Shown: positions 46,958 through 51,082 of the stretch, in pieces
How the letters are laid out: the number at the start of each line of letters is the position of its first letter
Numbering within the stretch: the stretch's first letter is position 1
Source of the DNA: Gammaproteobacteria bacterium
Lineage (GTDB): Bacteria; Pseudomonadota; Gammaproteobacteria; JAJFKG01
Direction: 5' to 3'
Length of the DNA: 64,000 bases
Assembly (NCBI GenBank): GCA_965116795.1
Contig: OZ220716.1
Span: 938,503 to 1,002,502 of the forward strand
Made by a program: the position numbers and the translations under genes
Notes under the pieces: model-generated
Seen by the model: only the letters and a program-made list of their open reading frames with translations
What the model was told of the DNA's origin: nothing
The model's database searches: none

Positions 46958-49900
46958 GTGTTTGATAATGGCACCAAGATAATGTCTAAAATCATCAATA
47001 TAACAATTAATCCCTCTAAATTTAAAATTCTTAGTGAGCTAGAAAAATCATTGTTTACGGATTTGCTAAAAGAGCAGTCATTGTTGGAAAAAGATTCAGA
47101 TAAAAATATTTATAGCGACAGGGTTTATTTTATATCAAAGGAAGATATTACGTATCAGATACGACTAAGCACATCTCTTTTTCATTATGCAAGCCCTAGC
47201 AAGTCAACAAATATTGATCGCTGGTTATGTATACATGATTTCGAAGAACAATTTAATCAGCAGTATTCTTATTTTGCATTAAGAGCAAATGGGTCACTTG
47301 AATATAAATTAAATACTAGTCTGCGTGGTAATAAAAATGTTTCTGTAACGAGACAAAAGGGACGTTTTAGTGGCTATTATAGTACACAATATTTAGAAAG
47401 AGACGCTAGATTTTTAACAAGAGTAAGACCTCAAGCTAAAATAGCAAAACCTTATTTAACAGCATCAATTGCAGTTCAGCCAGGGTTTGGTTTAAATTTG
47501 CAAGAATACTTAAGTATAGATTCTGTGCTTAAGCATGATGATAAAAAATCATCTTCTTTTGATAGAGATGCTCTAACGGTACTAGGATTAATTTGGCGAG
47601 CAGCGGCAGAACTTAATTGGTTGTTTGAAGAACATAAAATTCTGCACAATGATATTAAACTCGAAAATATGGGATATGATTATGTAAATGACAGATTTGG
47701 TTTTTTTGATTTTGACTTATCTACAACGATTTTAGATGGTCGGGAAGTTCGCGCGGGCAGTAGAAGTACAAGGGCGCCAGAAGTTATAAATGAGGGAGAA
47801 GGAAACAGTATAAAAAGTGATATTTACAGTCTTGCTGCTACCATAGAAATGATAGTTAGATATGACACACTTGAAGATGAACATAAAAAAATAATTATGC
47901 CTGTAATAAAAAAAATGCGTTCTTATAATGCTGCTGATAGACCTAATAATTGTAACGAATTAATGCATATGTGCGAGTTCATTTCTGCTTATGAAATACT
48001 TTTTTTCAATAAAAAAGATTATGATGATTTATCATATGGTACAAAAATGGCTGCAAAAAAATATATTACTAAAGCAGTAGATTCAATTGTAGAGAGAGAT
48101 GCCACCGTTAGAAGTGAAGATAAAGAGCAAGTTTCTTTACTTTTTGTGAATGACATTATGCAAAACGCACGAAAGTATAGAGGTTTGTTTGTCGATAAAC
48201 CTGACTTTCCGACTGATGATCAAGAAAGAAATGAAGCTATTTTAGAGAAAAATATTAAACTTCTTTATAAAGCACGTATAGTGGAAATAAAAAAAGAGCT
48301 GCAGGATATAAAAAAAATGGCAGTTCTGATTTATGCAGATTTATCTAATTTAACAGCTGAAGAAGCTGTTAATCAATTCGATTTTTACTCTGTGATTGGT
48401 CGGGTTAGTCAAGATGGTGAACCATTAACTAATGTTCTTTATAAGTACGATCAATTCATGTTAATTGAGAGAGTTATTGCAGCTATTAAAATAATAGATA
48501 ATGCGTCATTATCGGAAAATGAAAAAATAAAGCTATTACATGATTTGATAGAGAAGATCTCAAATACAACATTTGCAGCATGTCAAAAAAAATTATCAAC
48601 TAATCAGCAACAGCCAATTACATTTAAGTTTGTGAATGAATTGCATCATGTTAATAGAGGAAGTTATGTGCACTTCTTGAGCAAACAAGAAACAGCATTA
48701 TCTGCTGCAGTTTGCAAAATTATTGCTAATCATATTGATAAAAATTCTTGTCACTTTGAAGTTTTAATACAAGAGTTATCTGATAAAGAAACAAAGAATA
48801 GAAATGAAGTAAGTAAGCAGAATGATATTGCTCACATAGATATGATATCTTCTAATCGGAATTACAAACAGATAAATTTGAATGATTTAATAAATCCAAA
48901 TAAATTAGATAATTTTTATAAATGGATGGGAGTTGATGATTTCACTGCTGAGCAAAGAGATGATGTTTTTGCAATATTTAAAAGTAAATTTTACGAGTGG
49001 GTAAACAATATAGATGATTTTTGCGAATTAATTATCACTTCTGGTTTGACTGTTGAACAACAAGGTAGCATTTTTGAGATATTTAAGGATAAGTTTTCCG
49101 ATTGGGTAACCAATGTAAATGATTTTGTCGAATTGTACGCTATTCGTAATTTAACTGATGAACAACGCAGTGATATTTTTAAGTTGTTCAAAGATAAATT
49201 TTCCGACTGGGTAACCAATGTAAATGATTTTGGCCGATTGATTACTGTTCGTGATTTAACTGACAAACAACGCAGTGATATTTTTAAGTTGTTCAAAGAT
49301 AAATTTTCCGACTGGGTAACCAATGTAAATAATTTTAACAGATTAATTGCTATTTATGATTATTTACCTGATGAACAACGCAGTGATATTTTTGAGTTAT
49401 TCAAGGATAAATTTTCCGACTGGGTAACTAATGTAAATGATTTTGACCGATTGATTGCCATTCATTATTTAACTGATGAACAACGCAGTGATATTTTTAA
49501 GTTGTTCAAAGATAAATTTTCCGACTGGGTAACTAATGTAAAGGATTTTGGCCGATTGATTACTGTTCGTGATTTAACTGACAAACAACGCAGTGATATT
49601 TTTAAGTTGTTCAAAGATAAATTTTCCGACTGGGTAACCAATGTAAATAATTTTAACAGATTAATTACTATTTATGATTTACCTGATGAACAACGCAGTG
49701 ATATTTTTAAGTTGTTCAAAGATAAATTTTCCGACTGGGTAACCAATGTAAATGATTTTGGCCGATTGATTACTGTTCGTGATTTAACTGACAAACAACG
49801 CAGTGATATTTTTAAGTTGTTCAAAGATAAATTTTCCGACTGGGTAACCGATATAAATGATTTTGGCCGATTGATTGCTATTCGTGATTTAACTGACGAA

Positions 49901-51082
49901 CAACGCAGTGATATTTTTGAGTTATTCAAGGATAAATTTTCTGAATGGGTAACCAATGTAAATAATTTTGACAGATTGATTGCTATTCATTATTTAACTG
50001 ATGAACAACGCAGTAATATTTTTGACGTGCTTAAAGATAAACTTACCAACTTGACAAGCACAGCAAATGGTTTTGATGAATTGCTTACTATGCCTTATTT
50101 AACGAGCAAACAACGAAGTTACATTTTTGAATTTCTTAAAAATAAATTTTCTGAAATTGCAACCGAATACAGTATTTTTTATAACTTGATCAAGTTAGAT
50201 TTAACAAAAGAGCAACGCAATAACCTTATTGGAAATATAAAAGAAAAGATTCCAAATTTAATAGATACTTTTCAAAAAGCTAAAAGATTTATGTCTTTAT
50301 TGTCTCAGCTTGTGGAAGAAGAAGAATTAGATGAGCAACAAGCAAATGAAGTTTTTACGGAACTTAAAAATAAGCTTCCAAATTTAGTTGATGATCCTAA
50401 AAAATTTCGTGAGCTAATGAAAGCTTCATTTTTAGATGAGCAACAAAAAAGTGAGATTTTTGCAATACTCAAAGACGAACTTCCAAGTTTTACCAATCAC
50501 TTAAATGATTTCTATGATATTATATTTAATTCGGGATTAGCTGAGCACCAGCAAGAAGAGTGCATTGCTGTTTTTAAAGAATCATTGCCAAGTTATGTTA
50601 GCAATAAAGATGACTTTATCAGTATAATGGAAAGGTTTAATAATCATCCTTGTAAGTCAAAAATTTTTGACGTTTTAAAAAATCAATTGTCAAATTATAC
50701 AGAAGCCTCGTCAGACCTTGCTGCATTAATGAGTGCAGATTGCTTGTCTGAATATAAATCGGAAATTGTTATAGCAAAGTTATCTAGTACGGTGTATGGC
50801 TTTGTTAATACGTTGTCTTCAGTCCCTGGATTGGCGGCGCAAGCATTGGGCGACTTTATTCATGTAATAGCTGATTGTGTAAGTCAGCCTGCTCATTTTG
50901 TGGGAAGTTTTTTTTCTCGTACTTCTAGTAGACGTGCCGAAACATCTTCACCTGTTGTGAACAGCAAGCAAGCAGAGCAACAGGCAAGATTGTTGCCAGA
51001 TGATGAAGGTACAAATTCTGATACATCAGATTCAGATAATGATAAGCCATCAAGACCAAATCATTCACCGACGTCAGACTGA
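46958..51082 (+). CDS. protein kinase-like domain fused to a 35-aa helical repeat array; putative effector
   Basis: HNDIKLEN, DFD, APE, SDIYSL and DRP kinase motifs; tandem repeats; Ser/Asp-rich disordered tail. Confidence 0.8.
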   Translation: MFDNGTKIMSKIINITINPSKFKILSELEKSLFTDLLKEQSLLEKDSDKNIYSDRVYFISKEDITYQIRLSTSLFHYASPSKSTNIDRWLCIHDFEEQFNQQYSYFALRANGSLEYKLNTSLRGNKNVSVTRQKGRFSGYYSTQYLERDARFLTRVRPQAKIAKPYLTASIAVQPGFGLNLQEYLSIDSVLKHDDKKSSSFDRDALTVLGLIWRAAAELNWLFEEHKILHNDIKLENMGYDYVNDRFGFFDFDLSTTILDGREVRAGSRSTRAPEVINEGEGNSIKSDIYSLAATIEMIVRYDTLEDEHKKIIMPVIKKMRSYNAADRPNNCNELMHMCEFISAYEILFFNKKDYDDLSYGTKMAAKKYITKAVDSIVERDATVRSEDKEQVSLLFVNDIMQNARKYRGLFVDKPDFPTDDQERNEAILEKNIKLLYKARIVEIKKELQDIKKMAVLIYADLSNLTAEEAVNQFDFYSVIGRVSQDGEPLTNVLYKYDQFMLIERVIAAIKIIDNASLSENEKIKLLHDLIEKISNTTFAACQKKLSTNQQQPITFKFVNELHHVNRGSYVHFLSKQETALSAAVCKIIANHIDKNSCHFEVLIQELSDKETKNRNEVSKQNDIAHIDMISSNRNYKQINLNDLINPNKLDNFYKWMGVDDFTAEQRDDVFAIFKSKFYEWVNNIDDFCELIITSGLTVEQQGSIFEIFKDKFSDWVTNVNDFVELYAIRNLTDEQRSDIFKLFKDKFSDWVTNVNDFGRLITVRDLTDKQRSDIFKLFKDKFSDWVTNVNNFNRLIAIYDYLPDEQRSDIFELFKDKFSDWVTNVNDFDRLIAIHYLTDEQRSDIFKLFKDKFSDWVTNVKDFGRLITVRDLTDKQRSDIFKLFKDKFSDWVTNVNNFNRLITIYDLPDEQRSDIFKLFKDKFSDWVTNVNDFGRLITVRDLTDKQRSDIFKLFKDKFSDWVTDINDFGRLIAIRDLTDEQRSDIFELFKDKFSEWVTNVNNFDRLIAIHYLTDEQRSNIFDVLKDKLTNLTSTANGFDELLTMPYLTSKQRSYIFEFLKNKFSEIATEYSIFYNLIKLDLTKEQRNNLIGNIKEKIPNLIDTFQKAKRFMSLLSQLVEEEELDEQQANEVFTELKNKLPNLVDDPKKFRELMKASFLDEQQKSEIFAILKDELPSFTNHLNDFYDIIFNSGLAEHQQEECIAVFKESLPSYVSNKDDFISIMERFNNHPCKSKIFDVLKNQLSNYTEASSDLAALMSADCLSEYKSEIVIAKLSSTVYGFVNTLSSVPGLAAQALGDFIHVIADCVSQPAHFVGSFFSRTSSRRAETSSPVVNSKQAEQQARLLPDDEGTNSDTSDSDNDKPSRPNHSPTSD
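49151..49993 (+). repeat. eight near-identical 105-bp (35-aa) repeats within a degenerate array of about 17 units (about 48941-50740)
   Basis: CAACGCAGTGATATTTTT recurs every 105 bp (one unit is 108 bp); consensus LTDEQRSDIFKLFKDKFSDWVTNVNDFxRLIxxxx. Confidence 0.95.

Follow-up and report, generated by a model that had tools for sequence, protein, structure and literature searches.

A 64,000-nucleotide (nt) stretch of contig OZ220716.1 (positions 938,503 to 1,002,502 of the forward strand, assembly GCA_965116795.1), referred to here as the window, comes from a member of the Gammaproteobacteria (lineage JAJFKG01) and contains an open reading frame (ORF) that joins a kinase-like domain to a long array of tandem helical repeats. 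The repeat belongs to an apparently undescribed, PUF-like and hypervariable family, which is almost confined to Gammaproteobacteria bearing the Dot/Icm secretion system. Variation across the family is concentrated on one face of one helix, and the ORF itself is a probable Dot/Icm effector. The best reading, held with somewhat better than even confidence, is that the array is a diversifying scaffold by which an injected effector is targeted to proteins. The gene is organised as follows.

46958..51082, + strand: effector-candidate ORF, 1,374 amino acids (aa), GTG start (translation)
47504..47914, + strand: kinase C-lobe, residues 183-319 (PF00069 match, MEK1, alignment with four other kinases)
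47996..48940, + strand: middle region, ~315 aa, without family match or any homologue found
48941..49150, + strand: two N-terminal degenerate repeat units, 35 aa each
49151..49993, + strand: core of eight near-identical units, seven with 35 aa and one with 36 aa, in about three types that recombine
49994..50740, + strand: six degenerate C-terminal units (34-42 aa) plus a further helical cap
50741..51082, + strand: C-terminal tail, low-complexity, with an acidic and Ser-rich end (sequence)

The repeat array

A first-pass annotation of the window had described eight near-identical 35-aa units fused to a kinase. The units are real by translation, unit parsing and Tandem Repeats Finder, which reports a period of 105 nt with 10.1 copies, 85% matches and a score of 1414, far above chance, and a second period of 315 nt, or three units, with a score of 1588. 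The fusion is likewise borne out, in a genome that carries a Dot/Icm system; the interval 48941..50740 given for kinase and array together misses the kinase-like domain, which lies at 47504-47914, ~340 residues before the array. Sixteen units were parsed from 48941 to ~50644, namely two caps, eight core units and six degenerate units; the second core unit has 36 aa through one extra Tyr, and two caps have 34 and 42 aa. The two N-terminal caps stand as annotated, and six rather than about seven C-terminal ones were parsed, with a seventh possible because the helices predicted by a single-sequence model continue to ~50740.

The motifs listed by the annotation for the C-terminal ends of the eight units are correct in residues and order. 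It had placed the main variation at positions 26, 28 and 32-35 and described it as linked. Positions 28 and 32 hold up, position 28 (Gly/Asn/Asp) being the core array's most variable site on the helix that is hypervariable in the family, whereas position 26 is mostly Asp (65%) in the 33-aa units of relatives and positions 33-35 sit in the loop after the helix. Amino-acid variation among the core units extends to positions 2, 4, 11, 19, 23, 24 and 25. The linkage is present and imperfect, as two Asp-28 units differ at position 26, and position 32 varies within the Gly-28 and Asn-28 types.

At the nucleotide level, the core units fall into about three types, which differ by 1-3 nt within a type and by 10-15 nt between types, and two units are mosaics. 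Reshuffling by recombination, as proposed earlier, is supported by 44 of 136 informative site pairs failing the four-gamete test. Further, silent changes at codons 29 and 30 track the unit types. As silent sites travel with the types, the linkage is attributable to descent from about three types plus recombination or gene conversion, and it is therefore by itself no evidence of a code or sign of function; the caveat originally attached to it, by which about three ancestral units were duplicated, explains it better. The hydrophobic core has zero amino-acid changes among the units of this gene. Outside the variable face, the ratio of nonsynonymous to synonymous differences (pN/pS) is 0.19; pN reaches its maximum, 0.43, at position 28.

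A family of repeats with one hypervariable helix face

The repeat region was searched against 1.84 billion cluster representatives (50% identity clusters), which gave 254 proteins at E ≤ 0.001; family statistics rest on the best 150 of these 254 matches, this protein included. An iterated hidden Markov model (HMM) of the unit, a search that had been suggested at the outset, found units in 148 of the 149 other proteins listed, with a median of 11 and a range of 4-23 per protein. Unit spacing is 33 aa in 1,049 of 1,345 intervals, and the 35- and 37-aa variants lengthen the loop after the last helix; the array here is a 35-aa variant of a usually 33-aa repeat. Members with source names come from Legionellaceae and Coxiellaceae.

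Across 132 proteins with 957 units of exactly 33 aa, position-wise entropy is highest at 29 (4.01 bits), 25 (3.93), 28 (3.92) and 32 (3.64), with positions 27, 30 and 31 hydrophobic. The spacing i, i+3, i+4, i+7 corresponds to one side of a helix, so that the earlier suggestion of a single variable face is supported by helical spacing and entropy across the family. Among similar units within the same protein (673 pairs at ≥60% identity in 66 proteins), variability decreases in the order 29, 32, 25, 28, 33, 24. When similar units within a protein are compared, their identity being taken from the remaining sites, the five face sites (24/25/28/29/32) differ in 63% of comparisons, versus a mean of 30% and a maximum of 39% in 150 random exposed five-site sets. 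Face sites also lead the variability in the 35-aa units of six other proteins. Mutual information indicates no strong coupling among face positions, the pair 28-29 ranking eighth.

The same pattern is present in the DNA. Pairs of units at least 80% alike outside the face, picked on that non-face identity, were available in 11 of 24 repeat ORFs. The pN is 0.45 at the face and 0.18 at other exposed sites, compared with a pS of 0.15 outside the face, and face pN exceeds non-face pS in 11 of 11 genes with close unit pairs.

No Pfam family describes the unit in scans of this protein and its relatives (38 proteins at E ≤ 1e-4, 91 at 1e-8, 45 alignment rows at 0.01 and 18 at 1e-5). The labels Cmr2_hel_dom2, HTH_38, WHD_CHMP7, MgtE_N and DUF6291 were rejected, since their scores add up short helical matches of which no stretch passes. 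P0023, an ankyrin false match without units, was dropped, and a Legionella adelaidensis protein with a single weak unit (tblastn) was not counted. Matches in the ESM Atlas all fall under the 0.9 threshold; the TAL clusters at 0.76-0.81 are leads, and the top cluster may be this repeat family, since its Pfam labels match the family's spurious ones. Literature searches on Legionellales effector repeats and bacterial PUF proteins, with most subscription papers and all patents outside their coverage, gave no description of the family among the matches listed, and the main text of the L. pneumophila effector atlas (PMC11696984) mentions no pumilio, PUF or solenoid. In one member, L010 (G035:C11, 9342-10133, - strand), two unit types alternate strictly to give a 66-aa super-repeat, and the same protein holds a second array that is separately homogenised.

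Predicted fold and resemblance to PUF repeats

The uncharacterised alpha-solenoid proposed in the first-pass annotation is supported by an AlphaFold2 model of ten units built with 45 sequences, which is predicted with a pLDDT (predicted local distance difference test) of 95 and a pTM (predicted template modelling score) of 0.86. Secondary-structure assignment with DSSP gives, per modelled unit, a long helix at 3-20, a helix at 24-31 and a loop at 32-37. The AlphaFold2 model supersedes the single-sequence model (pLDDT 68), which splits the long helix near position 16.

Profile searches revealed a resemblance to Pumilio/PUF repeats that the first-pass annotation had missed. With profile A1, built from eight repeat regions, 13 PDB sequences match at E ≤ 0.001, nine of them PUF-family (Pumilio with E 5e-8, Puf-A, PUM1 and PUM2) and four engineered repeats, and no ARM, HEAT, TPR, PPR or ankyrin chain reaches this threshold. 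Profile A3 places Pumilio first (E 5e-4) in register across six repeats with a three-residue gap in each. Remote sequence homology to PUF over whole repeats in register was therefore found with both A1 and A3. With profile A2, engineered Protein A repeats come out first at 1e-8, ahead of Puf-A and Pumilio (5e-5 to 8e-5), and so a common helix-loop-helix motif explains part of the PUF signal. In the A1/A3 register, positions 24/25/28 correspond to PUF positions 12/13/16, which face the concave surface and read RNA bases (PMC8384837). The variable helix is thus predicted to match the RNA-reading helix of PUF proteins.

Structure searches with the model agree only weakly with this PUF ranking of the profiles. 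By Foldseek, the best E-values belong to designed PPRs (1.4e-7, 23% identity, TM-score 0.23, root-mean-square deviation (rmsd) 24 A), and the best TM-scores to PUFs (0.39-0.43), with PPR10 at 0.39. In a wide structural aligner, PUM2 (Z 8.0, rmsd 8.3 A) comes below trypanosome RESC proteins and also below a designed circular repeat with Z 10.6 and an rmsd of 3.6 A over 250. With a second-look aligner, a nine-repeat PUF scored Z 10.9 with an rmsd of 8.8 A over 309, and PUFs took 31 of the 50 rows of a redundant set (Z 7.3-10.9, rmsd 6-14 A), a range that is unspecific for helical repeats. No specific match came from a search of viral folds (best TM 0.39). The model may be read as PUF-like local architecture with a different curvature.

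PUF proteins are the top natural PDB profile matches of this repeat; the two agree in helix order and hydrophobic pattern, and the variable helix aligns with the RNA-binding helix of PUF. However, PUF units have 36 aa rather than 33 (35 here), and three residues are missing at the start of the recognition helix here; PUF proteins have 8-11 repeats versus 4-23 in this family; the recognition triplet is conserved in PUF and hypervariable here; global shape differs (rmsd 6-11 A, Z 7-11); and this repeat family is bacterial and enzyme-fused. This protein has no match to the Pfam PUF model PF00806. The summed score of that model exceeds the cut-off in two relatives (P0005 and P0154) and stays below it in P0012, with no single repeat passing. 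A six-frame PUF search of 401 genomes returned zero matches, and no positive control matched in that search. Instead of eight 36-aa copies there are 16 of 35 aa in this protein, and 4-23 of mostly 33 aa in relatives. The PUF recognition motif (C/Q, N/Q or S/E at 12/16), as defined in PMC8384837 and PMC7325665, occurs in seven of 957 units of relatives and in zero of the eight core units here. As length, Pfam score and recognition motif all disagree with PUF, the repeat is not filed as PUF.

Common ancestry with PUF is plausible, perhaps an even call. According to PMC7325665, PUF-superfamily proteins are reported absent from bacteria and archaea. Elsewhere, 382 bacterial UniProt entries are annotated as PUF in a table of PMC11514114, and may include such proteins, and a weak Puf-like similarity is given for Wolbachia CifA, a protein of unknown ligand, in PMC7465683. 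A bolder and, in our estimate, doubtful proposal is that host-associated Gammaproteobacteria took up a eukaryotic PUF domain, trimmed one turn from the recognition helix and converted the base-reading face to a hypervariable, recombining surface; some arrays might then have kept the reading of RNA, in a code of their own, and bring kinases, ligases or Nudix enzymes to selected host transcripts.

Association with the Dot/Icm system and partner domains

The genome that contains the window has DotI, DotM and IcmS above cut-off and also a DotG-like gene; DotA was not found there with PF11388, in a search in which no positive control matched. Across 400 scored genomes of the same class (G249 was left out of these searches), 25 carry the repeat, this one included. 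IcmS is present in 24 of the 25 carriers versus 83 of all 400 genomes, and DotI in 23 of the 24 other carriers. Because related genomes are not independent, this co-occurrence is presented as a pattern rather than as a statistical test. Together with partner domains known from Legionella effectors, it suggests translocation into a host.

The repeat has been found joined to diverse N-terminal regions. Those of 128 members form clusters of 76, 19, 10, 4, 3, 2, 2 and 2, with ten singletons. The largest (76 of 128) is defined by a conserved ~450-aa domain with invariant-looking Cys, His and Gly-rich motifs (P0005, P0006, P0008, P0018 and others; L049:4001-5370 and L024:1-1326). Two further N-terminal families of unknown function (19 and 10 members) also have conserved Cys motifs. 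These N-terminal families are probably undescribed effector enzymes. The named partners are a kinase (this gene and P0093), SidE phosphodiesterase (PDE), NUDIX, phosphatase, LepB_N, Fic, ankyrin and SidC_N domains, and are mostly protein-modifying enzymes. The repeats of the protein with the SidC-type ubiquitin-ligase domain were confirmed (hhalign 98.7%). Several genomes hold tandem or multiple paralogues with near-identical N-termini and different repeat faces, such as L023/L045 (G156:C3), L024/L046 (G058:C1) and L012-L016 (G022).

The kinase-like domain

The domain matches Pfam Pkinase PF00069 with E 2e-10 and 40.9 bits (cut-off 31.7) over profile positions 78-212 only. The catalytic loop HND-K-N (230-237), DFD (251-253) and APE (273-275) are all present, and the best PDB match is MEK1 (E 2e-5); a match to LegK1 is far below cut-off. 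DFD in place of DFG is known in active Mnk kinases. The upstream N-lobe, from ~47200 on, is non-canonical, with a loop-like segment followed by a gap at the beta-3 position, and no residue could be placed as the beta-3 lysine in an alignment with four kinases, from which four further candidates lacking the required catalytic-loop pattern had been dropped. Based on these features, the domain may be an atypical kinase or a pseudokinase. No family match was obtained for the ~340 residues between it and the array. The kinase region matched one other of the 400 genomes at E ≤ 1e-6. Its own genome holds 17 protein-kinase matches above cut-off. At ~1.10-1.55 Mb of the same genome (G000:C1) lies a large paralogue expansion, in which 13 protein-kinase domains of eukaryote type that closely resemble one another (E 1e-45 to 1e-54) are clustered with many long ORFs with 33-44-aa repeats.

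Ligand and function

In the proposed mechanism, the Dot/Icm system would inject the kinase-repeat protein into a eukaryotic host, where the predicted PUF-like solenoid would bind a host protein through its hypervariable helix face and bring the kinase-like, possibly inactive, domain to that protein. The face would form a concave binding groove and the ligand would be an extended protein segment, with duplication and gene conversion homogenising the scaffold and selection diversifying the face. Since recent expansion left about three unit types here, the groove would present a near-periodic ladder of Asn25, Gly, Asn or Asp at 28, and Arg29, suited to a repetitive or extended ligand. A protein ligand is favoured over an RNA or DNA code by several observations taken together. 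The 957 units hold 665 different 24/25/28 triplets, which also speaks against the small TALE- or PPR-like code suggested in the first-pass annotation. Aromatics make up 9.3% of residues at 25/28/29/32 versus 1.3% on other exposed sites, the face being neutral overall. Units carry a net charge of -0.66 on average, with 27 net basic proteins among the 132 and a charge of -7 for the core array here, and the partner enzymes point the same way.

It is unlikely that each repeat instead binds one base of single-stranded RNA (or DNA), by a new and looser PUF-like code that would deliver the enzymes to host ribonucleoprotein complexes. This explanation draws on the PUF share of the A1 matches (nine of 13, best E 5e-8), on the Pumilio register that A3 holds over six repeats, in which the variable 24/25/28 fall on the base-reading 12/13/16 of PUF (PMC8384837), on designed PPRs and PUFs leading Foldseek by E-value and TM-score, respectively, on the Asn/Arg ladder at 25/29 of this protein and on the NUDIX domain of one relative. 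However, the natural PUF pairs are nearly missing (7 of 957 units, none of the eight core units; a wider list covers 49), coded repeats use few combinations rather than 665, the repeats are net acidic, the counterpart of a hydrophobic X in the PUF 1-2-X-X-5 motif is Asp in 65% of units, and most named partners modify proteins. Still less probable is a structural spacer or oligomer scaffold without a specific ligand, in which helix variation would stem from relaxed constraint, slippage and gene conversion. The linkage in this gene does follow descent, silent sites included, with a face pN/pS of ~1; repeat number ranges from 4 to 23, and pS is raised at face codons. Yet other equally exposed sites vary half as much, an aromatic-rich face would be costly on a purely solvent-exposed surface, and the same sites vary in 33-, 35- and 37-aa lineages. 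Just as improbable is a non-protein host ligand of the face, whether polymer or membrane (ubiquitin or ADP-ribose chains, phosphoinositide-rich membranes, glycans), or else a second effector as its partner in metaeffector-type control. Periodic ligands would suit near-periodic arrays, the partners include ubiquitin-pathway and lipid-kinase domains, and helical and LRR (leucine-rich repeat) effectors of Legionella bind phosphoinositides according to PMC13435680, but the acidic net charge speaks against phosphoinositides and a hypervariable face would be needless for a single conserved ligand.

The protein-targeting scaffold is itself opposed by several observations. Its nearest sequence relatives among solved structures are RNA-binding proteins, and among the named partners NUDIX could act on RNA and LepB_N on lipid. 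The largest N-terminal domain (76 of 128) has no Pfam or PDB match, so that the ligand class rests on few annotated members. One carrier with a weak match, G377, has neither IcmS nor DotI. In this gene the face pN/pS is ~1 and Arg29 is invariant. In the family, positions 3, 6 and 8 rank among the face sites at ≥80% identity (62 pairs), and pS at face codons is also high (0.42); part of the face signal may be explained by old retained tracts rather than positive selection. Given this pS and the choice of pairs by non-face identity, the data establish diversification but not, cleanly, positive selection. Further, the face was placed by helical spacing and PUF alignment rather than by model coordinates.

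Relation to other repeat systems

An enzyme-plus-repeat architecture is shared with the ankyrin effector RomA (PMC11514114) and with IpaH/SspH, which combine LRRs with an E3 ligase (PMC5570926). Ankyrin, LRR and Sel1 effectors also resemble the present family in domain shuffling and in co-occurrence with a secretion system (Dot/Icm or type III). However, the unit here belongs to none of those families, is recently homogenised and has one hypervariable helix.

With the programmable DNA-binding repeats of TALE, STAR and pTERF proteins (PMC11417379), the array shares tandem units of 33-35 aa that are nearly identical and vary at few sites, and with TALE also the context of an injected effector. 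In contrast to the di-residue of TALE, variation here covers five or six sites within 24-33 and all residue types. TAL_effector PF03377 has no match in Pfam scans of this protein or its relatives, and no positive control matched in a genome search for TALE. The pTERF proteins differ in coming from Bacillota (PMC11417379). mTERF and STAR, taken from that source, were considered and not matched; mTERF has no Pfam match and is not among the fold matches listed, beyond which an mTERF match may lie. A member of the repeat family may be among the untested candidates of that paper. PPR proteins share the 35-aa unit length and supply, through designed PPRs, the best Foldseek E-values, but the structural agreement is poor (TM 0.23, rmsd 24 A), the basic unit of the family is 33 aa, and this protein has no PPR match in Pfam.

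Locus and genomic neighbourhood

The database record of the protein has 1,366 aa, consistent with an ATG start at 46982. The ORF has a GC content of 31% versus 41% for the genome, and is flanked by a 5S rRNA gene (46716-46831) and a tRNA-tuf cluster. Its acidic, Ser-rich tail end presumably matches the expectation for a Dot/Icm translocation signal. No paralogue exists in the same genome by tblastn, and the unit HMM matches this gene alone among 2,455 ORFs. Word-index searches returned only the protein itself for the full length and nothing for the kinase and middle region (shorter lengths). No repeat match was present in the same-genus genome G001 (90% complete) or the same-family genome G002; the flanking genes have no match in the former, and contigs of the latter end near them. 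The non-repeat 5' part (46900-49040) has zero differences across four sequencing runs, one of which is possibly the source; no RNA run is listed as containing the sequence.

An ISAs1 transposase remnant, the C-terminal half in two reading frames (51105-51475, + strand; single copy in the genome), begins ~20 nt past the effector stop codon. It is followed by a PemK/MazF toxin gene (51688-52240, - strand), an insertion in the interval that separates the rRNA operon from the tRNA-tuf cluster, and a short ORF upstream of the toxin gene looks like its antitoxin. With these two elements downstream of the effector, the site has acquired mobile DNA.

Elsewhere in the window, a 3,020-aa protein (3037-12099, - strand) resembles an RTX-type adhesin: it combines some six repeats of 140 aa (420-nt period) with a Pro-Glu stalk and with nonapeptide-like repeats rich in Gly and Asp. 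An exact 238-nt tandem duplication (99%) at 19300-19780 splits a gene, presumably dprA-like, into two overlapping ORFs, and is either an assembly artefact or a recent disruption of a competence gene. A 1,188-aa Sel1-repeat protein followed by two orphan ORFs without Pfam match forms a probable effector cluster (28959-34891, + strand).

Implications

Bacteria related to Legionella and Coxiella carry this repeat, which has neither a name nor a Pfam model, in at least 250 divergent proteins. Shuffling has placed it on kinases, phosphatases and ubiquitin ligases as well as on large domains of unknown kind, and it therefore probably sets the targets of many uncharacterised effectors. With the variable sites mapped to 24/25/28/29/32, the questions of protein or RNA ligand, and of code or no code, become directly testable on natural arrays, for which the paralogue sets with differing faces offer a natural comparison set for specificity. 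PUF proteins are regarded as a eukaryotic invention; if the resemblance to PUF reflects ancestry, the family would be a bacterial PUF offshoot whose ligand face went from conserved to hypervariable. If capture of a eukaryotic PUF domain were true, the PUF superfamily would gain in this family its first large branch in bacteria, a natural library of modular binders.

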